From: Leptospira sp.
GTDB taxonomy: Bacteria > Spirochaetota > Leptospiria > Leptospirales > Leptospiraceae
NCBI GenBank assembly: GCA_034439575.1
Contig: JAWXAQ010000030.1
Location: forward strand, 218,475-282,474
Reading direction: 5' to 3'
DNA: 64,000 nt
Numbering within the stretch: position 1 is the stretch's first letter; every line of letters starts with the position of its first letter. Both the position numbers and the translations under genes were made by a program. The notes under the pieces were generated by a model. That model was given only the letters and a program-made list of their open reading frames with translations. It made no database searches and was not told the DNA's origin. Positions 39,975-56,386 of this stretch are shown piece after piece.

Positions 39975-41276
39975 CTACGATCCTAAATACTTCCGAATCG
40001 AATTTGATAAAGTTTCATAAATCCATTTGAATTTTTCAGGATTTTCTTCTAAAAGCGTAACTCTAAATCCGTTTCTCGAACAACAAAATGAGCTTAAAGG
40101 TACAACACAAATTCCGGTAGAAGCTAATAGGTGCAATACGAACCTTCTATCTAGTGCGGCTTTTGATAACAGAGGCTCTACATAAGCTTTCACATCTGCA
40201 TTATCGATCGGTAAAGACATTGTATTTTTCAACGCCCCTTCTTCAAAGAGCACAGTTAGATAAAAAGCCCCTTTGGGTTCAATGACTTTAACTCCTGGAA
40301 TTCCTTGGAATGCCATTGTCGCTTGGTGTGCCCTTTTTTTAAACTTTTCATTTCTCTCTTTTAAATGTGTGATAAATTGGGGATGCGAGTATACTTTTGG
40401 GATAGATAATTGAGGAAGAGTTGTAGAACAAACTTCCAACATTTTAGCATCTAACAAAGACTTTATGTATCTATCAAATGTAGCATCATTCTTTCTATTA
40501 AAAATTTCTAACCATCCACATCTCGCGCCTGGCCAAGGAAATTCTTTAGAAATGGATCGTAAGGCAAACCCACATACTTTGTCACCTATCACTTCAGATA
40601 AATGAACAGAACCCCACTCAGAATAATTTACATGAGCATAGGTTTCATCACAAATAAGTATGATATCATACTTTTCGCAAAGTTTAACGATTTCTCGCAT
40701 TACATCTTTTGAATATACTGCACCAGTCGGATTATCTGGATTTATAAGTAAAATTCCTGCGATAGAATCATTGTACTTAATTTTATTTTCAATATCTTCT
40801 AAATCCGGCATCCAATCGTTATTAGGATTTAATTCATACGTTAGGTGTTCGTAACCAGAGTGAGCGGCTTCTGCAGAAGATAACGTAGAATAGGCGGGAG
40901 ATGGTCCGAGAATTCGTGCTTCTCTGCGCATAAATCCAAAAATTTTTGCTACAGCATCTCCGAGACCGTTAAAGAAAAGAATATCATCAGATGATATTTG
41001 GGCTCCACCTCTTTCATTCACTCTTTCGCTTAAAAATTTTCTAGTTTCTTCGTCACCTTGTGTGGCAGTGTAGGCCCATGAACGATTTTCTTCGACTAAG
41101 CCTTGTACGATGGCCTTCATCCAAGATGGTACAGATTCGCCCTTTTGGATCGGGTCTCCAATATTTTCCCAAGTAATGGGAACGCCTAGGTCTTGAATTT
41201 TTTTTGCGATGCCTACAATTTGACGAATTTCATAAATCAATGCGTCAGCACCTGAATGGACAATATTTCTTCTCAT
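39975..41276 (-). CDS. PLP-dependent aminotransferase class I/II
   Basis: NIGDP, INPDNPTG, DETY, SISKEFPWPGARCGW, PKGAFY. Confidence 0.92.
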   Translation of the reverse strand: MRRNIVHSGADALIYEIRQIVGIAKKIQDLGVPITWENIGDPIQKGESVPSWMKAIVQGLVEENRSWAYTATQGDEETRKFLSERVNERGGAQISSDDILFFNGLGDAVAKIFGFMRREARILGPSPAYSTLSSAEAAHSGYEHLTYELNPNNDWMPDLEDIENKIKYNDSIAGILLINPDNPTGAVYSKDVMREIVKLCEKYDIILICDETYAHVNYSEWGSVHLSEVIGDKVCGFALRSISKEFPWPGARCGWLEIFNRKNDATFDRYIKSLLDAKMLEVCSTTLPQLSIPKVYSHPQFITHLKERNEKFKKRAHQATMAFQGIPGVKVIEPKGAFYLTVLFEEGALKNTMSLPIDNADVKAYVEPLLSKAALDRRFVLHLLASTGICVVPLSSFCCSRNGFRVTLLEENPEKFKWIYETLSNSIRKYLGS

Positions 41277-41288
41277 TATGCTTCTAAC

Positions 41289-42416
41289 TTAATTCCCTTT
41301 TCGGTAGACAACCTCCACCAAAGGGATGGATAATTCCAAGTCTTGGCCCTCCCTCAATATCTTCAACCGTAAGACTCCGCCAAGTCCGACAAGACCCACT
41401 TGTTCGCGGAGGTCGTTGATATTTCGCACAATCACTCCATTGGCGGATTGGATAAAGTCGTATCGCCGAAGTCCCCCTCTATCCGAAGAAGACCCAGGTT
41501 CAATATCATAAACAAGTACACCAATGAGCTGTTTGGGAATGCCGAGGGATTTTCTATGATCAGGCAGGGGAATCGTCGCCATAACTCCGAGAGTGGCCGG
41601 TCGAATATTTTGCCCTACGTTTTGTTCAATTTGACGAAGAACCTTTTTTACATAATTGATCGGAATGGCAAAACCTATGCCCGCACTAGCCCCAGTTCCC
41701 GAGCGAATCATACGGTTGATTCCGATAACTTCGCCATAGATGTTTAGAAGCGGTCCCCCACTCGACCCAGGATTAATCGTAGTATCGGTCTGGATGTGAG
41801 TCTGTCCCGTTTCATCCAAGTCTTCTCTGGACTTCGTCGAGACAACACCAACAGTGAATGTCTTCTCCAATCCATAAGGAGAGCCTACAGCGATGGCCCA
41901 ATCCCCAACTTCGATCTCGTCTGAGTTCCCTAAAAACGCAGGAATAAATTTATCATCACTAGGGATTTTTAAAAGGGCAATGTCTGCTCGTTCATGACTG
42001 CCAATATATCTCGCAGGAAAAATTTTTCCATCTGGCATGATGATTTCTATAATCTCAGCATTTTTTATGACATGATAATTTGTGACGACAAAGCCCCTTT
42101 CATCTATAACAAATCCACTACCCAATGATGAAAGTCTTTCGTCTCGCCTATCGCCAAACGCATAGGGATGGAATAACATTTCTGTTTTTTTTGTGCGGAT
42201 AGATACGACAAATTCTTGTGCAACTTTGTAAACACCGCGAAAACTATTTTGAATTTGAATGGCTTGGTTTTGTTTGCTTGCAGATATGGGTTTCGGAACT
42301 GCAAATAATTTTGTAACAGAAGATCTGATCTCAGGAAAAAAAATAATAAACAGAAGAAAGAAAACCAAGCCAAAGTTAAGGTAGACGACTGTGGGAATTG
42401 AATATTTTCTTTCCAT
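41289..42416 (-). CDS. htrA: HtrA/DegP-family serine protease with one PDZ domain
   Basis: TM anchor; LGSGF, TNYHV, DIALLK, INPGSSGGPL; C-terminal PDZ. Confidence 0.9.
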   Translation of the reverse strand: MERKYSIPTVVYLNFGLVFFLLFIIFFPEIRSSVTKLFAVPKPISASKQNQAIQIQNSFRGVYKVAQEFVVSIRTKKTEMLFHPYAFGDRRDERLSSLGSGFVIDERGFVVTNYHVIKNAEIIEIIMPDGKIFPARYIGSHERADIALLKIPSDDKFIPAFLGNSDEIEVGDWAIAVGSPYGLEKTFTVGVVSTKSREDLDETGQTHIQTDTTINPGSSGGPLLNIYGEVIGINRMIRSGTGASAGIGFAIPINYVKKVLRQIEQNVGQNIRPATLGVMATIPLPDHRKSLGIPKQLIGVLVYDIEPGSSSDRGGLRRYDFIQSANGVIVRNINDLREQVGLVGLGGVLRLKILREGQDLELSIPLVEVVYRKGN

Positions 42417-42419
42417 AGA

Positions 42420-43499
42420 ATGCTGAAATCACCTCCATTTTCGTTTGCGAGTTTACTTTGTCGAATCAAAAAGCAATACTTGATGCTGCCAATGATGTAT
42501 TTCACTTTTAACGGATGTATTCCGTATTTATTTCATGTAGGAAGTGAACAAGGAAGAATTCTTTGGCATCGTGAAAAAATCGATACAATCATAAAAAATG
42601 AAACTTTGGATACCGAAGGAATTCAAAAATTAAAATTAATCCAGAAAGCACGCGAATTTAGTATCTCCAAACTTGCATTAAATGAAAAAGGAGGATTTGA
42701 ATATTTTACAAAATTGGATCGGGAAGAAATCGGATGGAATGTAAGTGCTTGTGAACAACTTGCATTTAAATCCTATACATGGTGGTTTCCTATTGCTGGA
42801 ACAGTTCCCTACAAAGGCTATTTTGATAAAAGCTTAGCCATCGAAGAAGAAAATAATCTGAAATCCAAAGGTTATGATACTCGCGTACGTGCAATTGGTG
42901 GTTATTCAACGTTAGGTTGGTTTTCAGATCCTGTCCTTTCACCACAATTAAAATGGGAAAATTTTAGATTAGTCGGTTTAGTCATTCATGAAATGGCACA
43001 TGCGACTGCATATTTGCCGGGTGACAGTAATTTAAATGAATCTTACGCCAGTTTTGTGGAAGAGAAAGGAATGGAGATGTATTATGAATTGTTAGAAGGA
43101 AAAAATAGTAAAACATTACAAGAAGCTAAAAAATCAAAATCGCGCAGAAAAGAAATTTTTTCCATCTTGAAAAAACACGCGAATCTATTAGAATTATTGT
43201 ATAATTCAAACCAAACCAAAGAAGAAAAGTTATTTCAAAAACAAAAAATCATTTCTGAATTTAAAGAAGAAATTTTAAAATTGAAAATCATTCCCGAAGA
43301 TAAAATGAATGAATTTCGCAAACGTGAATGGAATAACGAAGACTTCTTAGGTGTTTTGCGGTATCATTCGGGTTCTGAAGAATTTGAATTATTATTTCAA
43401 AAATCAGACAGGGATTTTAAAACCTTCCACATGGAAGTTAAAAAAATATTTTCATTACCAACAGAAGAGAGAAAAAAAATTCTCAACCTACCAGATTAA
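42420..43499 (+). CDS. Predicted zinc aminopeptidase, probable lipoprotein
   Basis: WWFPIAGTVPYKGYF, YSTLGWFSDP, IHEMAH, NESYASFVE; possible lipobox FNGC. Confidence 0.85.
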   Translation: MLKSPPFSFASLLCRIKKQYLMLPMMYFTFNGCIPYLFHVGSEQGRILWHREKIDTIIKNETLDTEGIQKLKLIQKAREFSISKLALNEKGGFEYFTKLDREEIGWNVSACEQLAFKSYTWWFPIAGTVPYKGYFDKSLAIEEENNLKSKGYDTRVRAIGGYSTLGWFSDPVLSPQLKWENFRLVGLVIHEMAHATAYLPGDSNLNESYASFVEEKGMEMYYELLEGKNSKTLQEAKKSKSRRKEIFSILKKHANLLELLYNSNQTKEEKLFQKQKIISEFKEEILKLKIIPEDKMNEFRKREWNNEDFLGVLRYHSGSEEFELLFQKSDRDFKTFHMEVKKIFSLPTEERKKILNLPD

Positions 43500-43537: not shown

Positions 43538-46500
43538 TTAATCGTCGGTGATTAGCGCAGATGTATAAAGTCTATACCCAGTCCAATACAGATCTTCTGG
43601 TGCTTCATTCCTTGCAGCCTCTTTCGCCTCATCCATTCTTAAATGAATGGGTTTATCCGATTCGAATTTTTCAAAAAACTTTTTTATAAATTTGATATTG
43701 TGGGTACCAGGTTGAATGCCTGAATGCAAGACAAACAATCCATCCAAGTTTTTTCCCAAGAAATAACCGGCAGCCGAATAATCATTCGAATAATAAGTTG
43801 ATTCACCTAGTCTATTGTTTGAAAACAAAGTGAACAATTTTTTACTTAGTAAGCCTTCTTTTGCAAGGGGAAAATTTCCATATTGAACTAGGTTTTTCTC
43901 CGAAAGATAAATTTGAGTATCATCAATTAAAAAATCTGTCTTTTCTTTTTTGGAGCCAAGTTCCCAGGCGATTAAATCCATCATAATTTTTTGATCAGCA
44001 GATACATTTTCTGAGTGATTGTAAATACTCGTAATCTTTTCTTGAAAGTTTATTTTTGATTTTTTAATATTATTATTTTCTAAAAATGATTTTGCAGAAG
44101 ATACAAAGTAATATTCTATATCTGGAAAAACTAAAGGTACTTTAGAATGTATACCTTTGAAATACAGATAATGCCTTTTACCCTTTGTTAAACGAAGCGT
44201 ATTTTTGTATTTATCAGAGATGGCATCCCTCTGCAATGTTTCCATACCACCCGCCTCAACCTCTACCGAATAACGCAGAATATCTTTCGTTAATTCTTTG
44301 TTATCCAAGAACAATTCTTTGCCAGTTGATTTTTTATCACTAAAGCTCAATAAATATGACTTTTTGCCAATGTCCACAATGGCAGAGAATTCTTGACCCT
44401 TGGGCATTTTTTCTTTAAGTCTTTCGCCTAATAAATCAAACTTGGGAAGTGAACTAACGAATACTTTTTCGCCAAGGTAGCGATCCTTATAAGAACGGAA
44501 CAGATCCCTTGCCACAGCAAGGTCAAAAAATACTTCTGAGGAATTTTTCCTTAAGGAGTTATTTAACATATGTAAGAATAGAAATTCAATTTCCATTCTA
44601 TATTGTTCAGATAAATACTCATTCTTTTCATTCTTCATTAGATCATTTAAAAATCCAATGTACAAAGCTGGTGAACTACTCTGAACCTTTGGATAAAGGT
44701 CAGCGATATTTTTTGGAATCGTATGATTGGATGGAAATTCCTTCTGATAAATATAAGCTATTTTGAATTTTAGATTATTGTACTTTTCATCCAAAAATGA
44801 ATTTCCAAAACCTAATTTAGAATAACCTTTCTCAAATAATGATAAATACCGATCAGCATGATCGATGTCACCCCGCAAGAATAAAGTTTCGGCATTTAAT
44901 AATTGAAAAACGAGAATTCTCATAGGCCGATTTTCTCTTTCTTCCTCTTCGATAATCAAATCTATCAAAGAATTAACTTCCGTTTGCTTCTGGAAATCGA
45001 TAGAATTTTTTAATAGTGAAAACATCAAAGTTCGATTTAAATGTGATAATTTTCCGAGGACGGAATCTCCCGTTGTTAAGTATTCTGGCGTTAAGACCAA
45101 TGGATCAAAATAACCTTTCGTTTGTTGCATTTTCCAACTTTGATACAATTTTTTACGGTATTGATCATAAATAGAATCTGCGTAACCATACTTTGTAAAC
45201 TCACGAGAATAAATTTTTTCATCGTATTGTTTCCATAATTTACGAAATCCCAAACTATAAGCAGAAGTTGATGTTAAGGAAGTTAAATGAATCGCCCCAT
45301 CACCGAGTAACATTCCTTTGTGGAAAAGAATTTCCAGTTCCCGATTTTTTGCTGTATTCTTTTCTTTTGGCGATTTTGCGAAACGATAGGATTTTTCTAA
45401 TTCAAGATTTGCTTCTTTCAAAAGATAATTTTGGATATATAAGGTTCCAAGTCGATATGCTTGTAAGAATGGATCTTCATTTTTTTCTAATTCTTTGCGA
45501 GCCAAGTCAAATTCTGACAAATTTGCCACCTGACCAAAACGTAACTTCGCATAAAATTTAGATGCCTTTGAATACAAATCACTTTTTTCACCTATCCACT
45601 GTTCCTTCAAATCTCCACATTCAACATAATTTTTGTCCGAATAACAACTAACAAAAAAATCATATCGAATCTTATTTTGAAACTCCGAATTAGCATATTT
45701 TTTCCATAATGGTTCGAAAAAGATTCTTTTTGGAAAATTGGGAAACAGTTCTACTTTTATTTTTGCAAGTTTTAACTCGAGTTCTGGAAGTTGTGGATCA
45801 GTATTTTCCAATAATGTTGAAGCCGAATAATATTTATCATATGCCTCTTCATAATCTTTATTGCGTTCGAATAAGAAAGCAGACTGAATAAGTTCTTTAG
45901 CTCTTGTTTGTTGATCTATGATTTTTTTATCTGACAACCAATTACCAAAAAGAAATACAGAAGAGTTTTTACTAAATTTTGATAATTCTGGATTTCCAGA
46001 TAACAATTGATTTTCTTGAGATTCTGTAGTATACCCGACTAAATTTTGAATACGTTTCGAACGTAATACTTCGAAAAAATAACCTAACCTAGTCCAATCT
46101 GCAGGCTCAGACAAATTATCAATCCGAATACCGGTAACAGAAATTTCAGAACCAGACGTTGTAAAAATTTCACGGAGTGGTAACATTTCTGAAACTGAAT
46201 CAGAAAACAAACTCCCATTAAACTTTCTTATTTTATTAGAAACTAATACATCTGTATCAAAAATGAGGGGACCAAGATTTTTATCTTTGGCAATTCTAAC
46301 CGTAGATTGAGAATACTCCTTTTCTTTGTCAGAAATGATGGTGCTCCATTTCCAATTACGCTCATTTTTCTCTGCAAATAATTCCAAATGGGATCTATCA
46401 AATATGAAAGTTGCCTCTTTTTCATTTTGAAGAAACATTGCGGAAATTTCTAAAGCCATCTTATGTGAAAAATGATTTCCCAAACTTTGAATATAAAATT

Positions 46501-49500
46501 TGTTTCCTGCAATTCTTTCCAAGCAAGCACTTAACGATTGTTCTATATCACAATTGATTCGATTGAGTTTACCATTTTCAAAATTTAATACAAAATTGAA
46601 ATTTTCACTTGTATAAATACCAAGCCAGCCATTGACAAAATTATTATATTTTGTTCTAAAAGGTTGGATAAAAGCAGACCTTTGTTCGGTAACGGAATTT
46701 ATTTTAGTTAAAACTTCTGGGAATTTTTTAAGTTCTTTTTCTTGGCTTTTCAGAATGTTTGCTAAATTTTCACGCCTTTCTGATTTTTGTTCAAGTGCTT
46801 GTTTTAAAATTTTATAATTCTTTACCCACACAAGAACATCAGAATATGCTAAATTTACTTTAGAATCTTCGAATTCAAATTGTGCGCCGATCATTTCGCG
46901 AAAAAGATCGATACTTCTTCTTTCTTCCCAAAGAGAAGGTATTTCAGAAATGTTTTGATTTTTAATATAATAATTTGTAATAGTATTTGCAAATTTATCC
47001 AATCTCAATCTTGGAGCATAAAGTCTTATTTCGGGCTTTGTCGTCCAAGAGGACATCAGACTTTCAAAAGTATTTTTTATTTCCGAGGAATTTTCTTTAG
47101 AAGAATTAGATGAATCATCCAATGCATTTTGCAATTTCAAATGAGTCAACCAAAACGATTCTTCGTCTAATCGAAATTCATATACCAATTCATTTGCTTC
47201 TTTCCATTTCTTCTGATAAAGATCAATATCACCTAATCTATGATAAATAACAGATAAATTATATAATATTCTAATTCTTTCCTTTCTTCTTAAAGGATCT
47301 GAAGATAAGCCCACTTCACGAGGGTCAATTTCACCTGGATTTTCTAAAAGTTCGGCAGCATTTGCGTAATTTAATTGAGCCTCTTCAGGTGAAATATTTC
47401 TTTTATACTCCCCTAAATAAAAATATGCAATGGCTTTAATTATATCGTATCGAATATTTGATTGTCTAAATTTTAAATCACATAGTAGATCATTACAATT
47501 TCCTAATACTGATTTTTTCCAATCTTCAAGTTCAATAAGTAACTCATTTAACTTTCCAACGGCTAATTCGGGATTTGATTGAGTTGTTTCTATAAGTGAA
47601 AAAACAGAAGCCGCATAGCGAGCGATAGCTTTATCCTTTGATTCTTTGTTCGCTCCTTTGATTACCATTTTTACAAGATTTTCAAAAGATTCTAATGCTC
47701 TGAGTGGCTCTTTATTTTCGTAATGAATTTGAGCTTCAATTTGTTTTGATTTTGCAAGTATACTTGCACCCATTATCGTTTTATCTAATGATCTATCTTT
47801 TATAAATTCATTTCTTTTATTTAGTTTATCAAGTGCTAAACCAAATTCTCTTTGTTCAATATGATTTTCAATTCCAATTCCCAGTGTAAGTAAATGTTTA
47901 AAATCATTTGGAAATTCTCCTGGGAATCTTCCTTCTCCAATCACGCGCACATCATTCGATAAAATTAAATTCCAAAAAGACCAAGATCGTAATTTAGCAA
48001 AAAAACCTGTTTTTAATTTTTCATATTCCAAATTTGCATAAGACAACATTTCATAAGAATCACGAAATCTTCCTGATTTCTGGAATGCTATGGCCAAATA
48101 ATTATAAAGATTAATCGGATTTATAAAATCAATTTGTTTATTATATGCAATAGCCGTTTGAAACGATTCAACGGCGTTCAGATAGTTTTGACTCTCTAAT
48201 TCAGATAAACCCTTTAATGAAAACAATAATGCCAACTTTGATCTAACGTTAATTAATCGATCACGGTTGATCTGATTATCATCAGAAGTTTTGGCATTTA
48301 CGGCTTGGTAATATTCATTTTTGAAATATATATCGATTGAGATATTAAATTGTTCGATAGCTTGTTTGTACTGGCTTTGGTAAATGAGGGATCTACCATA
48401 ATTGTATCTAAATACTGCTTCCTGCCTATAATTCTCAAATTGATTCTTTGATAATAATAATTTTGAATTTGATTCTACTTTCGAATAACATTCATTTGCT
48501 TTTGGGTAATTGTTTAATAAAAAATAATTATTCCCAAGATTTAGATTTAAATCTGAAACCACTTTCGGATCAGAATTTTTTTCGCCCAAAAACACGAGTA
48601 TCTGTGAATATAATTCTACATTTTCTTCTAAATTTTTCTCAGGAAAAAATCTTTTATAAAGTGAAGCGTATTTTTCTTCATCCGTTTCTGAGTCTGATGA
48701 TTTTTTACGTAACTTTAATAAATCAACGTATTGATAAAGCCAACCTAATAATTGATATGCGTCGTGATAAGTTGGATCTGCAAAAATTATCCATTTCAAT
48801 TCCCATTCTGCTTTTTTGAAATTTTCTAATATTTCTTTTTTTCGAGCATCAGTCATCGTATCTGTTGCATAATAGTAAGATTCATAAATTACATATTTAT
48901 TTATTAAAAAATACGCATAACCATAGAGTGTGGCTAAATCCAAATGTGGTCTGGCACGCGGAACTGCTTGTTTATAATATAACTCGGTCCATCGAAGTGC
49001 TTCACTTGAAAGAACCTCGATCTGTTCCAAATCTTTTAAATCGACAATGCTTCTCAAATATTTATTGTCCGTTACTATAGAAGTCGCATCAGAAATATTT
49101 CCGATTATATTGAGTTTATCTTTTCCTAAAATGTTGATTTGATTCAGAAGAGCTTTCTCTTCTTCTTCTCTTAATTTTTTTCCATAATTAAATATGGTAT
49201 CGACCATCTTTCTCTGATAATAGACCGCATACTCTTTGTAAAGCGTATCCAAATACAAATTTCTAGTTTTAACTAAAAACATATTTTGATTATTAAAAAA
49301 GTAATGAAATGATGATTGAAGCAAATTACCAGTTCTTTCAAATTCCAATGCTTTGTTTTCAAAATAAAAAAAAGCGTTTTCTATTTCTGTTGCCTTTAGA
49401 TCTACTCCTAATGTTGGATCATAGAATTCTAAATAAATTTTCATATTGCGAAGAGCATCAGAAGTATTTCCCGTGACCTTCTGATTTTGGTATTTTAGTA

Positions 49501-51496
49501 AATTAGCTCTTAGTAATATAGGATTTTTGTAAGCTGATTGAAATTGTACAATTTCAAACACAGATGGTTTGCCTGGCGGCTCAAGATCAATGTTTGTGGG
49601 AATCGGAATCACTGCATCCAAAATCGCATTTGACTCAGGGAAATTACGCATTTCGCTGTAAGCTTTCGCCTTTAGAAAATTTAAAAGCTGATAAAACAGT
49701 GCTTCATTTTTATTTTCAGGAATCTCTGCTAATTCTTCACACCAACGGACAATTTCCTCGGCTTTACGATTCTCTTCAATTTTGATAATTAAATCATCAA
49801 CTACATAGCGAAGATCACGTTTGATATCCAAATTAAATGGCCTTGAAGGGTTATTGATAAATTGATTTGATTCTAATTTCCAATTGGAAATTATCTCTTT
49901 ATACACATTAGGCAAAGTTTTAGAATTTGAAGCGAATTCATAACCACCTAACCTACGTTTCATTTCAGAAGCTTGGTGGTATTTTGGAAATTTTGATGTA
50001 ATTTCTCTTAAATAATTGGCAGTTTTGATTAAATCTTTTGTATTTTCATAATCATCAATTAAGATGTGTATTAAACTAGGGATGGTATCTATACTAACAT
50101 TTGTTTCATCCAATTTATGAATAAAGGAATCCAATTCATTGTTTCTTAAATTTTTATTTCCGCTTATCCATTTTCCAAGGCCAATTTCATATGCCGAATA
50201 TGGATTTATCGACTGATTTGTCATTTGTTGGATTATTTTCTTTGCATCTGAACTTCGACCCAATTTTTCAAAAGCGGCTATTTTCAATGCTTTGGTTTTA
50301 GCAAGATAAATTGGATATAAAGGATCTTCTGAAAAAAACAACTCGATGGAATCAAGACCAAGAAGATACGATTCTATGTTCTGGTTTTCTTGAAAAATTT
50401 TTGCATATTGGTATTGTTCTGCGATACTTTCTTGTTTTGGTATCGAACCACTTTCAGGAATAAAATAAATATTGATAGAATTGTAAAATGGTGCAGAGAA
50501 TAAAATAGAACCACCATTAAATGCAGAGTATCTAATATCAAAATAAGATGCTTCACCAGAAGAAAGGACTCTTTCCTTTCCGGTTAACAAATTTCGCATG
50601 ATAAGAAAATTTGTATCTCTCTCATCCAAAAGTCCATTTGCATTTGTATCTTTACGAATCGAAGAATAATATAGAAATATTCCTTTACTATCAACTGTAG
50701 GAGTAAAATCCAAAAAAGTATCTTCAGTTATACGAGAAGTAACTTTTGAAATCAAATCCAATTGATAAATTTCCCCACGTTTTTCATCTTTGTATGATAC
50801 AAAAAATACTTTGTCACCATTCTTTGAGAAGGATGGATTTACTGCTCCGTCTGTTGTTAGTTGACGAATGTCATTAGGTTTTTTTGGATCTATAAAGGCT
50901 AAATTAGGCAAACCTGGAGAAAATTTATCAGTCACGAATAAAATAAATTTCCCATCAGGAGACCAAACCGGATCCGTATCAATGACACGCTGCTTAGAAC
51001 TTTTTTTGATAGCCTCAGGATTCGTTAGATTGAATGTTTCCGTTTCTATAAATCGATTCCCGGCGAGTAATTCTTCGACCCATTCATCGATATTCATTTC
51101 TAAAAGTACTAAGTCTCCTTCCGAATCATATTCTTCAGAAACAAAAACTAAATACTTACCATCTGGCGAAATTGCAGGTTTTGATTCAGAAAAGGAATTC
51201 ATGGTCACAGGAACCACAATTGAACTCTGTAAATCACGAAACCATATATCATAATTGCCATTTTGATCCGTGGTATAAAATAGATACCTTCCATCTGCCG
51301 TTGTGGAACTAAATAAGTTATTTCCTCTTTGAACTGTTAGTGGGAAGGGCTTAGATTGATTAGGCGAAAAATAATTATTAGCGATCGCTTTGTAATCAAA
51401 CGTTACTGGTGAAATTTTCACCGATCTTTGCAAAAGCGTACATTGAACTAAAAGTATGATGGATAGAAAAAATAAATAATTAAATTTTCCGATCAT
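43538..51496 (-). CDS. Giant (2652 aa) lipoprotein: TolB-like PD40 beta-propeller, TPR arrays and two degenerate CHAT-like domains
   Basis: Lipobox LLVQC; PAISPDGKYLVF, PVWSPDGKFI and PSFSKNG repeats; TPRs (LNLGNNYF, YNYGRSL, YNYLAIAF); C-terminal YWTGYRLY. Confidence 0.8.
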   Translation of the reverse strand: MIGKFNYLFFLSIILLVQCTLLQRSVKISPVTFDYKAIANNYFSPNQSKPFPLTVQRGNNLFSSTTADGRYLFYTTDQNGNYDIWFRDLQSSIVVPVTMNSFSESKPAISPDGKYLVFVSEEYDSEGDLVLLEMNIDEWVEELLAGNRFIETETFNLTNPEAIKKSSKQRVIDTDPVWSPDGKFILFVTDKFSPGLPNLAFIDPKKPNDIRQLTTDGAVNPSFSKNGDKVFFVSYKDEKRGEIYQLDLISKVTSRITEDTFLDFTPTVDSKGIFLYYSSIRKDTNANGLLDERDTNFLIMRNLLTGKERVLSSGEASYFDIRYSAFNGGSILFSAPFYNSINIYFIPESGSIPKQESIAEQYQYAKIFQENQNIESYLLGLDSIELFFSEDPLYPIYLAKTKALKIAAFEKLGRSSDAKKIIQQMTNQSINPYSAYEIGLGKWISGNKNLRNNELDSFIHKLDETNVSIDTIPSLIHILIDDYENTKDLIKTANYLREITSKFPKYHQASEMKRRLGGYEFASNSKTLPNVYKEIISNWKLESNQFINNPSRPFNLDIKRDLRYVVDDLIIKIEENRKAEEIVRWCEELAEIPENKNEALFYQLLNFLKAKAYSEMRNFPESNAILDAVIPIPTNIDLEPPGKPSVFEIVQFQSAYKNPILLRANLLKYQNQKVTGNTSDALRNMKIYLEFYDPTLGVDLKATEIENAFFYFENKALEFERTGNLLQSSFHYFFNNQNMFLVKTRNLYLDTLYKEYAVYYQRKMVDTIFNYGKKLREEEEKALLNQINILGKDKLNIIGNISDATSIVTDNKYLRSIVDLKDLEQIEVLSSEALRWTELYYKQAVPRARPHLDLATLYGYAYFLINKYVIYESYYYATDTMTDARKKEILENFKKAEWELKWIIFADPTYHDAYQLLGWLYQYVDLLKLRKKSSDSETDEEKYASLYKRFFPEKNLEENVELYSQILVFLGEKNSDPKVVSDLNLNLGNNYFLLNNYPKANECYSKVESNSKLLLSKNQFENYRQEAVFRYNYGRSLIYQSQYKQAIEQFNISIDIYFKNEYYQAVNAKTSDDNQINRDRLINVRSKLALLFSLKGLSELESQNYLNAVESFQTAIAYNKQIDFINPINLYNYLAIAFQKSGRFRDSYEMLSYANLEYEKLKTGFFAKLRSWSFWNLILSNDVRVIGEGRFPGEFPNDFKHLLTLGIGIENHIEQREFGLALDKLNKRNEFIKDRSLDKTIMGASILAKSKQIEAQIHYENKEPLRALESFENLVKMVIKGANKESKDKAIARYAASVFSLIETTQSNPELAVGKLNELLIELEDWKKSVLGNCNDLLCDLKFRQSNIRYDIIKAIAYFYLGEYKRNISPEEAQLNYANAAELLENPGEIDPREVGLSSDPLRRKERIRILYNLSVIYHRLGDIDLYQKKWKEANELVYEFRLDEESFWLTHLKLQNALDDSSNSSKENSSEIKNTFESLMSSWTTKPEIRLYAPRLRLDKFANTITNYYIKNQNISEIPSLWEERRSIDLFREMIGAQFEFEDSKVNLAYSDVLVWVKNYKILKQALEQKSERRENLANILKSQEKELKKFPEVLTKINSVTEQRSAFIQPFRTKYNNFVNGWLGIYTSENFNFVLNFENGKLNRINCDIEQSLSACLERIAGNKFYIQSLGNHFSHKMALEISAMFLQNEKEATFIFDRSHLELFAEKNERNWKWSTIISDKEKEYSQSTVRIAKDKNLGPLIFDTDVLVSNKIRKFNGSLFSDSVSEMLPLREIFTTSGSEISVTGIRIDNLSEPADWTRLGYFFEVLRSKRIQNLVGYTTESQENQLLSGNPELSKFSKNSSVFLFGNWLSDKKIIDQQTRAKELIQSAFLFERNKDYEEAYDKYYSASTLLENTDPQLPELELKLAKIKVELFPNFPKRIFFEPLWKKYANSEFQNKIRYDFFVSCYSDKNYVECGDLKEQWIGEKSDLYSKASKFYAKLRFGQVANLSEFDLARKELEKNEDPFLQAYRLGTLYIQNYLLKEANLELEKSYRFAKSPKEKNTAKNRELEILFHKGMLLGDGAIHLTSLTSTSAYSLGFRKLWKQYDEKIYSREFTKYGYADSIYDQYRKKLYQSWKMQQTKGYFDPLVLTPEYLTTGDSVLGKLSHLNRTLMFSLLKNSIDFQKQTEVNSLIDLIIEEEERENRPMRILVFQLLNAETLFLRGDIDHADRYLSLFEKGYSKLGFGNSFLDEKYNNLKFKIAYIYQKEFPSNHTIPKNIADLYPKVQSSSPALYIGFLNDLMKNEKNEYLSEQYRMEIEFLFLHMLNNSLRKNSSEVFFDLAVARDLFRSYKDRYLGEKVFVSSLPKFDLLGERLKEKMPKGQEFSAIVDIGKKSYLLSFSDKKSTGKELFLDNKELTKDILRYSVEVEAGGMETLQRDAISDKYKNTLRLTKGKRHYLYFKGIHSKVPLVFPDIEYYFVSSAKSFLENNNIKKSKINFQEKITSIYNHSENVSADQKIMMDLIAWELGSKKEKTDFLIDDTQIYLSEKNLVQYGNFPLAKEGLLSKKLFTLFSNNRLGESTYYSNDYSAAGYFLGKNLDGLFVLHSGIQPGTHNIKFIKKFFEKFESDKPIHLRMDEAKEAARNEAPEDLYWTGYRLYTSALITDD

Positions 51497-52093
51497 TCAC
51501 AATCTCTCCCAATTCCCAGACGATACTTCATAAAACTCACCTTTGGTGACATTTTTCTGATATCCATCGTATAAGCTTTGTTTAATAACTTTGAGTTCTT
51601 CCTCTCTTTTGCCTTTTTTCTTTTCTTGTTCAATTTGCCGTTCGATTACAATTTTTCTAGATTCATTAACTAAACGTACTACATCTTCCACTCGTTTCTT
51701 TCTCGCGGCTGTTTCATATTCTATAAAAAATGGAGATGTATTTGCTAATGGATTTTGTTTTAAAACTCCACCTAAACCTTCACCAATGATACCATGAATT
51801 TTATAACGTTTCACTTCGACTGAAAGATAATTGATTCTTTGAATGTGACCTGAATATTCTGGATCCGTATTATCTGATCCACTCATCGGCTTTGTTTGAT
51901 TACGAGATCCAGAAGAGGATTGGATTGAGGAGACAAGCCATCCATCCTTTTCCAAATCTCGATCTTCACCAACCATTTGTTTTTCGGCGGCCGTTTGAGC
52001 ATTTGTAATAGTGAATGGAGGAACTTTGAAATTGATTAAGGCTTGGCAATTCCAAATGGGAATGATAATAAATAAAATAAGTTTTAATTTCAT
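51497..52093 (-). CDS. Lipoprotein with DUF1318 (YdbL-like) domain and YnbE-like N-terminal beta segment
   Basis: Signal peptide with Cys; YKIHGIIGEGLGGVL, VNESR and GEFYEVSSGNW match the DUF1318 pattern as recalled. Confidence 0.72.
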   Translation of the reverse strand: MKLKLILFIIIPIWNCQALINFKVPPFTITNAQTAAEKQMVGEDRDLEKDGWLVSSIQSSSGSRNQTKPMSGSDNTDPEYSGHIQRINYLSVEVKRYKIHGIIGEGLGGVLKQNPLANTSPFFIEYETAARKKRVEDVVRLVNESRKIVIERQIEQEKKKGKREEELKVIKQSLYDGYQKNVTKGEFYEVSSGNWERL

Positions 52094-52104
52094 TGGATAT
52101 TCCT

Positions 52105-55100
52105 TTATTGGTACGTCTGGATTTCCGATTGAGCTCGTTTTAAAAAATTGGCCAATGGCATCCTTTGTTGCGAAATCTTACTATCTTCTAAATTTACAAA
52201 TATAGAAAGTAAAGATCTTCTGAAATACACATCCGCATATACTAGGCCTTTTGATAAAGAAACATCTATCGTATTTACAGCATAACTATCAGCTATACGA
52301 TCTATTAGAAAGTTTTGCGGTGAGATGACATTCAATGCACTTTTGCCAAAATCACTTCCGATTTGAAAAATTGAGAAAAATAAATCCATATTGGCGATTG
52401 GTTCTGTTAAATCTCTTACAGAAATATTAAGATCGGCTTTTAATTTTCCATCTTCAATTTTATCTCTTACCTTTGGAGCCATGAGTTGCCTTAAATCGAT
52501 ATCTCTAATTTGAACATTTCCTCGAAATTCCATGGAAGCAGGGTCAGCCGAACCTACGTTAAATATCATATTTTTTCCAAGGACAATGCCATCTAACGAA
52601 TATGCTTTTAAATCTTCTATCGTCGCATAATTTTCACGATAATTGATTCGAGCCGACAAACCTGGAGCATTGCCTTGTTTTTTTACATATTCAAAGGCTA
52701 GATCATCAATACTTGGATGTGTACCAATAATTTGACTGATTTTTAAATTTGGTTCTCCAGTCCTACCATACGTTTTTATAAAAACTGATTTATCACCAAC
52801 AATCAGACTATCCTGTTTTTTCCAAGCAAGGCTATGATGAAATGGGATATTGGCTTCCAAATCCTCGATTAAAAACACCTTACAGTCGCTACCTGGACAT
52901 TTTTGATTGGTCTGAAAAAGATGAGAGTGATTTGAAATCAAATTTCCTGTGATATCAAAATCTTTTATGTCGGCATTCAAAGTCAAATCACCCAAAAATG
53001 AAATGCCTCTTAGTAAATATTTTTTTTCTGGGGATTTGATAGATAATTTTGAATTAATCAAACCAAAATATGGACCTAACGGAGCTTTGGCTACCCCTGC
53101 CCTCTCTTCTAATAATCCACTTATATTGATTGAAATAATTTTTTGAAATGCAGTCAGAGACAAATTATTAATTTTGATTTTACTATCTTTGCCTTTTAAA
53201 ATTTGCAAATCGGCAATCAGATTCAAATCTTTAATCTCTAAACCAGGAATAACCCCCGTTACATTGGCTTCGATTTTTTGTCCAGAGTCAGACAATGAAA
53301 TATGTGACTTTGCTTTGAGAGTCGGATCATTTCCTAGAGTACTTTGCAAGGGTGCAATTTTTTCTTTCAAAACGAGAGGGAGAGTTTGTAAGAGAGAAGG
53401 AATGTTTAGAGAAATATTTAAAGGATTTGTTTGGATCTCTGTGGAAGATCCGAGTCCGACAGAGCCAGTTAAATCAAGACCTAAGGCTTTTCCACCCGAA
53501 AGTGTTTTTTGCGAAAGGTTTAAACCTTCCAAGTTAATCTTTGTTAAACCAAAAGGTTTATTGAATAATAATCCTACATTGCCATTCAAAAATAACTTTG
53601 AAGAAGGAGAGCGAGAACGATCAAGTGCATAGCGAAAACCATCCACAATGATATCCAAATTTAAAGGCAAATAGGAAAAATCTGATGCAGCTACTTTGAC
53701 ACTTGCTTTTGCTTTCCCGCCAACTGCAGATGTAAATTCAGAAAAATTTAAATTTTCTATGAACAAATCTAAATTTAGATTTTCTTCGGCATCATAAAAA
53801 CCAACCAAGTTAACAACGATTTCATTATAGATTATATTTATTTTTTCAAAGACAAAAGACTTAAGAATAGGAATCGGATTCTTTGCCGTTTTTTCTTGTT
53901 TATTTCCAAAATCCAAATTAGCAGATAGTACTAAATCCAATAATCGTACAGAATGTTTTTTGGCATTTCCCATAACAAAAGAAAGGTTTTGGCCTGTGAT
54001 GCGAAGAAACATTAATGCCTCTTTCCAGGTTCCTTTGATTTTTGTATCCTGAAGAGATACATTCCCATTTACATTCATTTTTGGAAGTATGCCTTCCAAT
54101 TGACCTAAGAGTTGATTGACGGCTCCGAGTTTTATATTTGATTCTATAACGGAAATATCAATACTACGATTTTCGTTTTCAATATCTTTGATATTTCCTT
54201 TAAGGCTAAGCCATGTATCACCCATGATTCGAAGGGAGAATTTTTTAATATTTAATTCATCTTTGTCTGGTAAAAATTCAATGTGATGTGTTAAATTACA
54301 TCCTAAGAGTATAGGACGTTTTTTATATTCTAATTGGATCTGGTCTGTACCTATGTTAGATGAAGATAAAAATACTGGTGAGGAAGTATCGTTTTTCCAA
54401 TCAAATAACAAACTTAATGGTAGCGTTTGTTTCCAATTGAGATCTTTTGATTCGATTTCAATAGGAACTGACCTGTCAGGATTCAAAGCGATAAAAAGAC
54501 TATCAATTTGATCCAATATATCCGCGTTAAGCGGGAGTGAAGTAAATCGGTTTGAAACAAAATCGAATCTAAAGTTGAGATCATAGATATCAGCTATCAG
54601 TTTTTTTTCGGACTCTTTTAGGATACGAAAATGAAGTTGGCTAATATTTAAATGTGCTTCCGCCGCAAAAGGCAAATAGGTGCGTATCACTTCCAGAGGT
54701 TCAGAAATTTCTTCGGGTAGCTCTTGTTCAACTACCGAAGGTTTGGCGATACTTACATAATTCCATACATTATCTTTTTCATGCAAAAATATCGTCCCAG
54801 ACTCAATGGCAATTTCGCTGATCTTTAATTTTAAAATGATAAGTGAAAGAAGATTGTATCGTAGAGCTAATCGTTTCGCTTCGAACAGGGATTCGTTGGC
54901 AAATGGTGCTTTTGTTTTAAGTCGCACATCTTTGGCATCGAGACCGAAAAACAACGAAAAGGTTTTAACATTTATTTCTAATTCTGCATTTGTGAATTGA
55001 GAGACAAGTCTAGGGATTAGATAGTCGCCTGTAAAGGGATTGAAAATGGATTTATAGATTAAAAAAAAGACTAAGAAAAAACGAAACCAGGTTTTACTGG

Positions 55101-55137
55101 CGATGCTTCGGAGATTTTCCAAAAAAAAGGAAGCCAC
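52105..55137 (-). CDS. AsmA-like (YdbH-type) intermembrane bridge protein
   Basis: N-terminal membrane anchor, then a Chorein_N/AsmA-like segment (FGLDAKDVRL...LFEAKRLALRYNLLSL...ISEIAIE...WNY) and about 900 aa of amphipathic beta strands. Followed by a DUF1318 gene. Confidence 0.7.
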   Translation of the reverse strand: MASFFLENLRSIASKTWFRFFLVFFLIYKSIFNPFTGDYLIPRLVSQFTNAELEINVKTFSLFFGLDAKDVRLKTKAPFANESLFEAKRLALRYNLLSLIILKLKISEIAIESGTIFLHEKDNVWNYVSIAKPSVVEQELPEEISEPLEVIRTYLPFAAEAHLNISQLHFRILKESEKKLIADIYDLNFRFDFVSNRFTSLPLNADILDQIDSLFIALNPDRSVPIEIESKDLNWKQTLPLSLLFDWKNDTSSPVFLSSSNIGTDQIQLEYKKRPILLGCNLTHHIEFLPDKDELNIKKFSLRIMGDTWLSLKGNIKDIENENRSIDISVIESNIKLGAVNQLLGQLEGILPKMNVNGNVSLQDTKIKGTWKEALMFLRITGQNLSFVMGNAKKHSVRLLDLVLSANLDFGNKQEKTAKNPIPILKSFVFEKINIIYNEIVVNLVGFYDAEENLNLDLFIENLNFSEFTSAVGGKAKASVKVAASDFSYLPLNLDIIVDGFRYALDRSRSPSSKLFLNGNVGLLFNKPFGLTKINLEGLNLSQKTLSGGKALGLDLTGSVGLGSSTEIQTNPLNISLNIPSLLQTLPLVLKEKIAPLQSTLGNDPTLKAKSHISLSDSGQKIEANVTGVIPGLEIKDLNLIADLQILKGKDSKIKINNLSLTAFQKIISINISGLLEERAGVAKAPLGPYFGLINSKLSIKSPEKKYLLRGISFLGDLTLNADIKDFDITGNLISNHSHLFQTNQKCPGSDCKVFLIEDLEANIPFHHSLAWKKQDSLIVGDKSVFIKTYGRTGEPNLKISQIIGTHPSIDDLAFEYVKKQGNAPGLSARINYRENYATIEDLKAYSLDGIVLGKNMIFNVGSADPASMEFRGNVQIRDIDLRQLMAPKVRDKIEDGKLKADLNISVRDLTEPIANMDLFFSIFQIGSDFGKSALNVISPQNFLIDRIADSYAVNTIDVSLSKGLVYADVYFRRSLLSIFVNLEDSKISQQRMPLANFLKRAQSEIQTYQ

Positions 55138-55160
55138 ACCCGAAATCGCCCCAATAAAAT

Positions 55161-55502
55161 TTAATATTCGAAAGAGTCTTCCGCCTCTTCCAATGTTTTA
55201 TATATCTCAAAAACGCTAGATAACTTTGTGATTTCCATCAAATTTTCAATATCTGAATTTAAGTTAGCAAAGACAAGACGGCCATTCAAACCATCAATAT
55301 GTTTATAAATATTTAAAAACGTACCTAAGCCCGCTGAATTGATAAACGGAACTTTCTTAAGATCAATGATGAATTTAGGAACTTGGCCTTTTTTGATGTA
55401 CTGTTCGATTTTCTCGGACAATTCAAACTCATTTCCTGCTTTGATGGCACCCTCGATCTTAATGATGTGCACGTCGTTTTTACTAGTAACTTTGATTTTC
55501 AT
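55161..55502 (-). CDS. STAS domain protein (anti-sigma factor antagonist)
   Basis: IIDLKKVPFINSAGLG with the conserved Ser; LMEITKL. Confidence 0.93.
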   Translation of the reverse strand: MKIKVTSKNDVHIIKIEGAIKAGNEFELSEKIEQYIKKGQVPKFIIDLKKVPFINSAGLGTFLNIYKHIDGLNGRLVFANLNSDIENLMEITKLSSVFEIYKTLEEAEDSFEY

Positions 55503-55567: not shown

Positions 55568-56386
55568 TTATGCACAGTGCAATAAATCTTTTTTATGCAT
55601 TTTCAATCGTCTTTTGGCATTGGATAGGTGCACTCTCACTTCCTTTCTGGACATTCCAAGGAGTCGAGCCACCTCTCGTTCTGAGAAAAAACTTTTGTTA
55701 ACTGCTTTTTCTCGCGCAAGAACCCATTCTTTTTTCTTTCTTAAATACCAGCTTCTTTTCTCATTCTGCGAGGCTTCCATTAGAAGTCTAGTATATCGCA
55801 ATATCCTGGAGGTACATAATTCTATTTTCTTATTTCCCTTCTCCTTCTTTTTGTCATAAATGTGCTCAAAATCAGCAAACTTTTGCCCTAAATGATTTAA
55901 GCTCCATTCCAATGCTTTTCTATGTTTACCTAATATAGGAAAATCAAATTTCAAACATACCACCAAACCTGTTTTGATGGGCATTGAGTCCAAGTGCAAT
56001 TCGACTTGGTCCGAAACCTTTGGATTCAATAGGTAACTCGCGTCAGGTTCAAATTTTGATTCCTGCCAAAGTTCCAAAAAATTTACCCTTTCATCAAATT
56101 CTATGACTTTACGATTTTGATTTCTAAATAAATTGAATGCATATGTTACAAAAAATCCGAGAACCACATTAATATCGTATTTTAAAGACATACGCCACAT
56201 AACATCAAATTTTTCAAGAATGGTAAGCACAAGTTCTGCTTTGTCATCTTCACTTAATCTTCGTTTGCGTTCAATTTTCATTCCCATCCATATTGGCAAA
56301 ATGGAAAGTAGTATGCATTTGTTATCTGTGATTCGTGCCGTATTTACAAGAGCTTTAATTTCTTCTTCGGTTTTTATTGGAAACAT
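55568..56386 (-). CDS. Atypical sigma70-family (ECF-like) protein
   Basis: C-terminal region-4 HTH SEREVARLLGMSRKEVRVHLSNAKRRL; weak region 2 (FFVTYAFNLFRN). Confidence 0.6.
   Translation of the reverse strand: MFPIKTEEEIKALVNTARITDNKCILLSILPIWMGMKIERKRRLSEDDKAELVLTILEKFDVMWRMSLKYDINVVLGFFVTYAFNLFRNQNRKVIEFDERVNFLELWQESKFEPDASYLLNPKVSDQVELHLDSMPIKTGLVVCLKFDFPILGKHRKALEWSLNHLGQKFADFEHIYDKKKEKGNKKIELCTSRILRYTRLLMEASQNEKRSWYLRKKKEWVLAREKAVNKSFFSEREVARLLGMSRKEVRVHLSNAKRRLKMHKKDLLHCA

Follow-up and report, generated by a model that had tools for sequence, protein, structure and literature searches.

How phospholipids reach the outer membrane is an open question, and AsmA-like bridges are the leading candidates for the route. 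To our knowledge, the AsmA-like bridges of Escherichia coli have only small partners (YnbE, YdbL and TamA). Four adjacent genes on a 64,000-nucleotide (nt) stretch of Leptospira sp. DNA (contig JAWXAQ010000030.1, positions 218,475 to 282,474; hereafter the window) raise the question of whether spirochaetes have a bridge of this type with a very large partner. In order, they encode a STAS-domain protein of 113 amino acids (aa), a 1010-aa AsmA-like protein, a 198-aa lipoprotein and a 2652-aa giant lipoprotein. The reading that we favour, by analogy and at a probability of about 0.6, is that they represent a conserved spirochaete trans-envelope module of the lipid-bridge type, in which the giant would act as a scaffold or regulator.

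All four open reading frames (ORFs) lie on the minus strand. The ORF listing of the window gave intergenic gaps of 23, 11 and 0 nt, in exact agreement with a first-pass annotation that had described four co-oriented genes with this spacing. The string begins with the STAS gene (55161-55502, ATG start), whose product is of the anti-sigma-factor-antagonist type and has no signal peptide. The AsmA-like gene (52105-55137, GTG start) encodes a protein of the LIC_11026 family, predicted to be of the repeating beta-groove type and anchored in the inner membrane. It is followed by the gene for the YdbL-like lipoprotein (51497-52093, ATG start) and by that for the giant (43538-51496, ATG start), the start codon of which abuts the stop codon of the 198-aa gene. 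All four have conserved orthologues, so none is a chance reading frame.

The 1010-aa protein was matched over its full length by NCBIfam NF047499 (1388.5 bits), the model of the uncharacterized LIC_11026 family. An exhaustive phmmer search with this protein returned 174 cluster representatives at E ≤ 1e-3, mostly of 900-1100 aa, and 73 full-length homologues were aligned (alignment A2) for structure modelling and for a family profile. The AsmA, DUF748, YhdP, TamB and YdbH-like families of Pfam belong to one clan. When the 45 most distant members of A2 (set A3) were scanned with Pfam, 25 matched DUF748 (best E 3.1e-15), eight matched AsmA (best E 1.2e-9) and one matched YhdP; in the eight members listed individually the matches were N-terminal (profile positions ∼8-155 of 1037) or fell in the C-terminal part of AsmA. 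A homologue on a contig of a metagenome-assembled genome (MAG) from outside the phylum, L087, matched the A2 profile (E 5.8e-20) and scored 45.3 bits against Pfam AsmA, for which the cut-off is 29.8. In a language-model Atlas, all the named nearest clusters of the 1010-aa protein were AsmA, DUF748, YdbH-like or YhdP.

The AlphaFold2 (AF2) model of the protein, built from A2, had a predicted local distance difference test score (pLDDT) of 89.7 and a predicted template modelling score (pTM) of 0.67. It showed helices at residues 2-48, about 50 successive beta strands up to approximately residue 970, and a conserved C-terminal helix. As modelled, the protein thus has one membrane anchor, at its N-terminus, and beyond it ∼950 residues that form a continuous beta sheet. 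Foldseek placed LPD-3, a bridge-like lipid-transfer complex, first (E 1.7e-4, TM 0.15) and LptD next. VIA, a second structural search, listed neither TamB nor YdbH nor any other AsmA-like chain, from which no exclusion follows. The first-pass annotation had expected a continuous beta-groove resembling YdbH, TamB or AsmA; the all-beta part of this expectation was borne out by the ∼50 strands of the model, but no structure of YdbH, TamB or AsmA appeared in the VIA listing. Taking transitive homology together with the confident all-beta model, we conclude that the 1010-aa protein is AsmA-like.

Its placement within the clan is a separate matter. The YdbH-like model PF11739 gave no match to the 1010-aa protein at E ≤ 1 and none in the genome. 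Membership of the YdbH family was ruled unshown because both this search and an hhalign comparison with YdbH itself were negative. Of the earlier label 'YdbH/AsmA-like bridge', the AsmA-like half therefore stands, on the DUF748 and AsmA matches of distant members and the above-cut-off score of L087, but the YdbH half does not. Three further AsmA-like ORFs were seen in the genome, of 697 aa (C36), 687 aa (C30:59666-60556) and 483 aa (C27). Although control genomes did match the TamB model PF04357, this genome, 99.98% complete, gave nothing at E ≤ 0.1.

The 198-aa protein has 39 orthologues, all from Leptospira-type sources, many of which are named DUF1318 by NCBI. A hydrophobic leader ends in Cys16, which is invariant in 39/39 and is the predicted site of lipidation. 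Next come an N-terminal module (residues ∼23-60), then a linker of low complexity, and finally the DUF1318 domain at the C-terminus (residues ∼96-197); a motif at residues 25-48 is likewise invariant in the 39 orthologues. The DUF1318 model PF07027 was matched by 18 of the 39 at E ≤ 0.01 (best E 6.9e-6). The corresponding neighbour in L087 is a canonical lipoprotein that scored 47.5 bits for DUF1318 against a cut-off of 27, and hhalign aligned it with the Leptospira family across both modules (probability 96%, E 4.4e-9). The designation as a YdbL-like, DUF1318-type lipoprotein was thus upheld by the orthologues and the L087 homologue, the copy in the window itself lying below threshold (E 0.38). 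Judged from these sequence comparisons, the 198-aa protein is a two-module YdbL-like protein with a predicted lipid anchor.

Direct alignment to E. coli YdbL by hhalign was weak (E 0.0042, probability 8%, residues 96-197). In this alignment N58 and R61 of YdbL fall on the invariant N143 and R146, and E60 falls on S145. The YnbE-binding pocket of YdbL is reported to comprise E60, R61, L68, K70, N72, A83 and L87, so that R61 is among the YnbE-contact residues (bioRxiv 10.64898/2026.03.16.712125). YnbE itself (PF13617) had no match on the window proteins at E ≤ 1, and a separate YnbE gene would not fit into the gaps of 11 and 0 nt. The N-terminus of the 198-aa protein was aligned by hhalign to E. 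coli YnbE with a probability of 26% over residues 1-31, signal peptide included, and an Atlas search with residues 17-96 returned only the protein's own family (0.76). That the N-terminal module might be a fused equivalent of YnbE is speculation. A search of PDB sequences with the 198-aa family profile gave chance-level matches only (Pex14, E 0.03). Prediction of a complex between residues 560-1010 of the AsmA-like protein and residues 17-198 of the lipoprotein returned a score of 0.00 and no verdict, and so provides evidence neither way.

The 2652-aa protein has a leader that ends in Cys19. Of 28 Leptospiraceae orthologues listed, 25 have both leader and cysteine and three start downstream. 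Homologues of the giant number 120 and cover all Leptospira groups, including pathogenic species. A TolB-type PD40 beta-propeller occupies residues ∼50-350 (50447-51349; PF07676, four stretches, E 7.2e-21). It is followed by a helical-repeat region of approximate boundaries, residues ∼351-2252 (44741-50446), with matches to TPR_2, TPR_12 and other TPR models. In public records the orthologues often go under the names 'biopolymer transporter TolR' or 'translocation protein TolB'. On the giant, the TolB equivalog TIGR02800 scored 75.2 bits against a cut-off of 343, the shared part being the PD40 repeats only, and nothing TolR-like was found; these names are consequently unjustified and look like annotation errors.

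The C-terminal 400 residues of the giant (2253-2652; 43541-44740) carry a domain that the first-pass annotation had overlooked. Its description of a giant propeller-TPR lipoprotein held for the PD40 repeats, the TPR region and the Cys19 leader, but was incomplete in missing a CHAT fold. The CHAT model PF12770 gave no match on the whole protein at E ≤ 1, nor at E ≤ 10 on four pieces covering residues 354-2652, and hhalign of the giant with CHAT aligned only the last 49 columns (E 3.7e-4, probability 36%). The most distant homologues of the giant are of equal length, have the propeller in common and carry a Pfam CHAT domain at their extreme C-terminus (P0307, E 2.7e-92; P0306, E 8.2e-71); in BLASTP, P0307 matched residues 1-394 of the giant (E 2e-28). 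The last 400 residues were then modelled with an alignment of 20 orthologues from the fetched loci (A4), giving pLDDT 89.9 and pTM 0.91. Foldseek returned 37 matches at E ≤ 1e-3 for this model, led by the Csx29 TPR-CHAT protein (5.9e-9) and followed by separases and DdvA. VIA, which is independent of Foldseek, aligned 340 residues with the Craspase TPR-CHAT chain 7y83_D (Z 20.9, root-mean-square deviation (rmsd) 4.6 Å) and placed separase at Z 19.6, the first unrelated row being at Z 8.9. The periplasmic TPR-CHAT protein DdvA was recovered by both (Foldseek 8rot_A, E 5.2e-5; VIA 8rot_B, Z 15.0). From the model, we conclude that the C-terminal 400 residues of the giant have the caspase/separase-like CHAT fold.

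This fold's catalytic His-Cys dyad is missing from the spirochaete proteins. The motifs 'H..CHG' and 'LSAC.TG' were present in seven of eight non-spirochaete relatives. They were absent from the remaining 20 aligned sequences (P0004 and 19 of Leptospiraceae or intermediate type) and from 11/11 giants of other spirochaete families, and no cysteine is conserved in A4. The spirochaete giant is thus a pseudo-CHAT protein. Two matched CHAT stretches were seen in the CHAT-bearing relatives P0307 and L087:5183-13528, which indicates a CHAT module in the middle of these proteins in addition to the C-terminal one. A sliding hhalign scan of the giant for such a middle module gave a best match of E 0.04 and probability 1.4%, near residues 1744-1790.

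The 113-aa protein matched the STAS model PF01740 (E 2.6e-21) and the anti-sigma-antagonist model TIGR00377 (77.6 bits against a cut-off of 53.45); by these matches it is a bona fide STAS protein of the anti-sigma-antagonist type. Across Leptospiraceae genera it is 72-100% identical to the copy in the window, whereas identity falls to 32-50% for the neighbouring AsmA-like protein. The segment 'KKVPFINSAGLG' was invariant in the STAS ORFs of loci L032-L082 and the window. Such constraint is unusually strong for a small regulator. An invariant 'FINSAGLG' motif contains a serine that would correspond to the phosphorylated serine of SpoIIAA/RsbV. Like SpoIIAA/RsbV and MlaB, the Leptospira protein is a single STAS domain of ∼110 aa; unlike them, it has no kinase, phosphatase or ABC ATPase at its locus, and is linked to an AsmA-like gene, an association of which we know no earlier description. 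The search for an anti-sigma kinase, phosphatase or ABC ATPase was limited to this locus, where none was found among six flanking genes. An MlaB-like role is unsupported, since there is no MlaF-like ABC ATPase at the locus.

The distribution of these genes was assessed in sampled genomes. The AsmA-like family was found in 61/61 Leptospiraceae genomes from 14 genera, some with at least two copies, and in 87/201 Spirochaetota genomes at E ≤ 1e-10, a count that includes partial matches to shorter paralogues. Gene order was then surveyed with phmmer-scored ORFs at 40 loci from 36 Leptospiraceae genomes (at least one per genus, with extra genomes from large genera and second copies partly sampled) and at 20 loci, each from a different genome, in other spirochaete families. 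All four genes were present at 24/40 Leptospiraceae loci. The AsmA-like, lipoprotein and giant genes were present without STAS at 4/40, and the STAS, AsmA-like and lipoprotein genes without the giant at 5/40. STAS and AsmA-like genes only were seen at 2/40, and the AsmA-like gene stood alone at 5/40, one of these being truncated where its contig stops.

The lipoprotein gene lies directly 3' of the AsmA-like gene at 33/40 Leptospiraceae and 15/20 other spirochaete loci. The trio of AsmA-like, lipoprotein and giant genes is adjacent at 28/40 and 11/20, with the giant usually abutting or overlapping. STAS, by contrast, is directly upstream of and co-oriented with the AsmA-like gene at 31/40 Leptospiraceae loci and at 0/20 of the others. 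Its inclusion in the system, as first proposed, consequently holds within Leptospiraceae but not elsewhere. Order and orientation were kept across at least 10 spirochaete families plus one unrelated MAG. The latter is L087, a distant MAG outside the phylum that carries the same trio with the CHAT domain of its giant intact; the closer P0307 relatives L085 and L086 have no AsmA-like neighbour. Conservation of gene order, which the first-pass annotation had left to a synteny survey, is supported by the trio in both sets of spirochaete loci and in L087. At four loci (L098-L101, family f14/g27) there was only the pair of AsmA-like and DUF1318 lipoprotein genes, with no giant; two of these four had, ∼2 kb upstream, an opposite-strand ORF with weak resemblance to STAS.

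Two reports describe, in E. coli, an intermembrane bridge of YdbH and YnbE with YdbL as its helper (PMC11126948; bioRxiv 10.64898/2026.03.16.712125). The Leptospira locus resembles the ydbH-ynbE-ydbL operon in having an AsmA-like gene directly before a DUF1318 gene, in involving a lipoprotein and in its tight packing; the positions that align weakly with N58 and R61 of YdbL are conserved in the Leptospira lipoprotein. It differs in that the 1010-aa protein is unmatched by the YdbH model and by hhalign, and in that no separate YnbE is found in this genome. Unlike E. coli YdbL, the Leptospira DUF1318 protein is itself predicted to be lipid-anchored and has an extra conserved N-terminal module. 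Leptospira also adds the PD40-TPR-pseudo-CHAT lipoprotein and, in Leptospiraceae, the STAS gene. The earlier proposal of a spirochaetal version of the E. coli bridge therefore holds for the AsmA-like protein, the DUF1318 protein and their order, but not for YnbE or for a YdbH-family match; its statement that the E. coli operon contains no equivalent of the giant was supported.

The giant is best compared with the TPR-CHAT proteins Csx29 ('Craspase', 7y83 and 8eex), separase (5mz6 and 5u1t) and DdvA (8rot), with which it shares the C-terminal fold and a TPR array before the CHAT domain. As in DdvA, its CHAT-fold domain lies outside the cytoplasm; DdvA, an anti-sigma factor, is described as the only characterized periplasmic TPR-CHAT protein (PMC11506125). 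In contrast to the TPR-CHAT proteases, the spirochaete giant has no His-Cys dyad and no Pfam CHAT match, and is three to four times longer. It also has a PD40 propeller and a lipid anchor, and has no link to CRISPR or to a sigma factor of the extracytoplasmic function (ECF) type. The L087 trio matches that of Leptospira in gene order and in how each of its three proteins is built overall; it differs, along with the P0306/P0307-type proteins, in retaining the CHAT dyad, the Leptospira version being a pseudo-enzyme in a locus that begins with a STAS gene.

If the analogy with E. coli YdbH-YnbE-YdbL holds, the AsmA-like protein would form a groove across the periplasm that shields lipids. At the distal end of this groove, the lipid-anchored DUF1318 protein would help or act as a cap in the manner of YdbL, possibly substituting for the missing YnbE. 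The giant could be a non-catalytic scaffold or gate that docks or regulates the bridge through the surfaces of its propeller, TPR array and pseudo-CHAT cleft, a former protease cleft that would now serve for binding only. The cytoplasmic STAS protein, a Leptospiraceae addition, is most likely a partner-switching regulator co-expressed with the module and not a structural part of it. A bolder version appears rather doubtful to us. In it, the giant would belong integrally to a novel type of AsmA-like bridge, as a protease turned clamp that replaces YnbE, together with the YdbL-like lipoprotein, as the dock and gate at the outer membrane, and in Leptospiraceae the near-invariant STAS protein would couple signalling to the flow of outer-membrane lipid.

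Several observations weigh against a lipid bridge built around the giant. The window's own 1010-aa protein had no Pfam match at E ≤ 1, and no model of the AsmA clan matched it in genome scans at E ≤ 0.1 either; the eight distant members listed individually all scored under the curated Pfam cut-offs. Alignment of A2 with E. coli YdbH by hhalign gave nothing (probability 0.3%), and a PDB sequence search with the family profile had TamB as its sole match, at a non-significant E of 0.11. VIA searches with the whole model returned porins, TonB-dependent receptors and the ApoB beta-belt at rmsd 9-13 Å, matches that mean merely a long curved antiparallel sheet. The window's 198-aa protein scored 11.7 bits for PF07027 (E 0.38), below the cut-off of 27. 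There was no credible match to YnbE (PF13617) in the genome, the best being at E 0.09 and elsewhere; with no YnbE-like gene, the outer-membrane end of the bridge is undefined. The giant was absent from 12/40 Leptospiraceae and 9/20 other spirochaete loci, from which it follows that the AsmA-like/lipoprotein pair can exist alone. STAS may be an operon passenger, as it evolves far more slowly than its neighbours and is absent outside Leptospiraceae. Even for the E. coli proteins, lipid transport is described as not yet biochemically demonstrated (PMC11126948).

The same genes could instead make up an envelope-stress or signalling device. The giant would then be a periplasmic sensor or a scaffold for regulated proteolysis, operating in the manner of the TPR-CHAT anti-sigma factor DdvA, with the signal passing via the membrane protein to a cytoplasmic partner-switching system (STAS and PP2C phosphatases), and with the AsmA-like protein as tether or sensor and not as a conduit for bulk lipid. 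The presence of DdvA among the structural matches of the giant fits this, as does the position of STAS directly upstream at 31/40 Leptospiraceae loci. SpoIIE-type PP2C phosphatases also follow the AsmA-like gene in the paralogous loci L038 and L050. The dyad is lost, however, in every spirochaete giant sampled, so that proteolytic signalling cannot be the mechanism at this locus; moreover, the Pfam scan of the giant found no transmembrane or anti-sigma domain, the module outside Leptospiraceae is without STAS (0/20), and the pairing of AsmA-like and DUF1318 proteins is the hallmark of a YdbH-type bridge. We consider such a device unlikely. That the four genes are mere neighbours, brought together by genome compaction and without a common function, is very improbable. 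Such an explanation can draw on the incompleteness of the module, with the giant absent at 12/40 and 9/20 loci and STAS at 9/40 and 20/20, but it is opposed by an order and orientation that persist, at protein identities of 32-50%, across no fewer than 10 spirochaete families and in an unrelated MAG, the reading frames abutting or overlapping.

A further possibility is a role like that of TAM (translocation and assembly module), in which the AsmA-like protein would insert or export outer-membrane proteins or lipoproteins as TamB does, and the giant would be cargo or an assembly factor on the outer-membrane side. The family profile had TamB as its sole PDB sequence match (E 0.11), but this match is non-significant. 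The lack of a PF04357 match in the genome means that a TamB-like role could be vacant; no TamA/BamA-type barrel gene was found at the locus among the flanking genes scanned. A gene for a FadL/Toluene_X-like barrel follows the AsmA-like gene in paralogous loci of the L038/L039 type, yet a FadL-type neighbour suits the transport of hydrophobic molecules at least equally. A DUF1318 partner, finally, is known from the YdbH system only. A TAM-like role thus has little probability in our view, and a lipid-bridge-type module remains the reading that we prefer.

Paralogous AsmA-like loci without a giant were seen in other Leptospiraceae genera. At L038 (L038:5520-11458; also at L039) the AsmA-like gene is followed by genes for the FadL/Toluene_X-like barrel, a binding protein with TPR repeats and a HAMP-SpoIIE PP2C phosphatase (E 9.4e-38). 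At L050 (L050:6120-14079) it is followed by genes for a 1761-aa kinase-AAA-GAF-SpoIIE protein (E 1.7e-41) and a VIT-domain protein, and L045:6706-9330 is alike. These SpoIIE neighbours hint at a recurrent tie between AsmA-like proteins of the LIC_11026 type and partner-switching signalling.

The genes around the string in the window are of other kinds; the six flanking genes scanned were unrelated in kind to the four-gene set. A 272-aa protein is encoded 65 nt upstream of STAS (55568-56386, minus strand) and has a weak C-terminal helix-turn-helix (HTH; Sigma70_r4_2 E 2.9e-4 and GerE E 2.5e-3, both under cut-off). Its gene was upstream in 7/7 loci of the same genus and in 0/33 other Leptospiraceae loci; it is probably a genus-specific neighbour that lies outside the module. 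The other upstream neighbours are a Na+/H+ antiporter and an Nramp-like transporter. Just downstream of the giant gene lies a convergent gene for a PF10023 aminopeptidase (42420-43499, plus strand), then one for an HtrA/DegP-type trypsin-PDZ protease (41289-42416, minus strand); the other downstream neighbour is an aminotransferase. In E. coli, DegP is reported to degrade free YdbL (bioRxiv 10.64898/2026.03.16.712125). The four-gene region has a G+C content of ∼30-35% throughout, and a 1-kb interval on the side of the HtrA-type protease (41000-41999) has 45.6%, against ∼31-36% nearby.

A consensus scan for promoters and terminators gave counts at the level of shuffled sequence (57 against 57.7, and 9 against 7.0), and so is uninformative on transcription units. 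In a look for RNA evidence, two wastewater runs contained only 5-6% of the sequence words.

The four-gene combination appears to be undescribed. A literature search of full texts, supplements excluded, found no paper on LIC_11026, the neighbouring locus tags or this gene combination. Results that concern this window and its spirochaete relatives in particular are the near-invariant STAS protein confined to Leptospiraceae, a CHAT dyad lost from all the spirochaete giants sampled, and the census of the module across Leptospiraceae and other spirochaete families. A conserved version of an AsmA-like bridge with a 300-kDa lipoprotein partner would, if true, broaden the picture of these systems. Some lineages keep this partner as an intact caspase-like protease, whereas the spirochaete form is dead, which suggests control of bridge assembly by proteolysis or by a fossil of it. 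Leptospira has an atypical envelope, and the genus includes important pathogens. With several AsmA-like paralogues and no TamB match in the genome, the module is a concrete target for the study of Leptospira envelope biology, and through its near-invariant STAS gene a connection of partner-switching signalling to the envelope can be put to the test.

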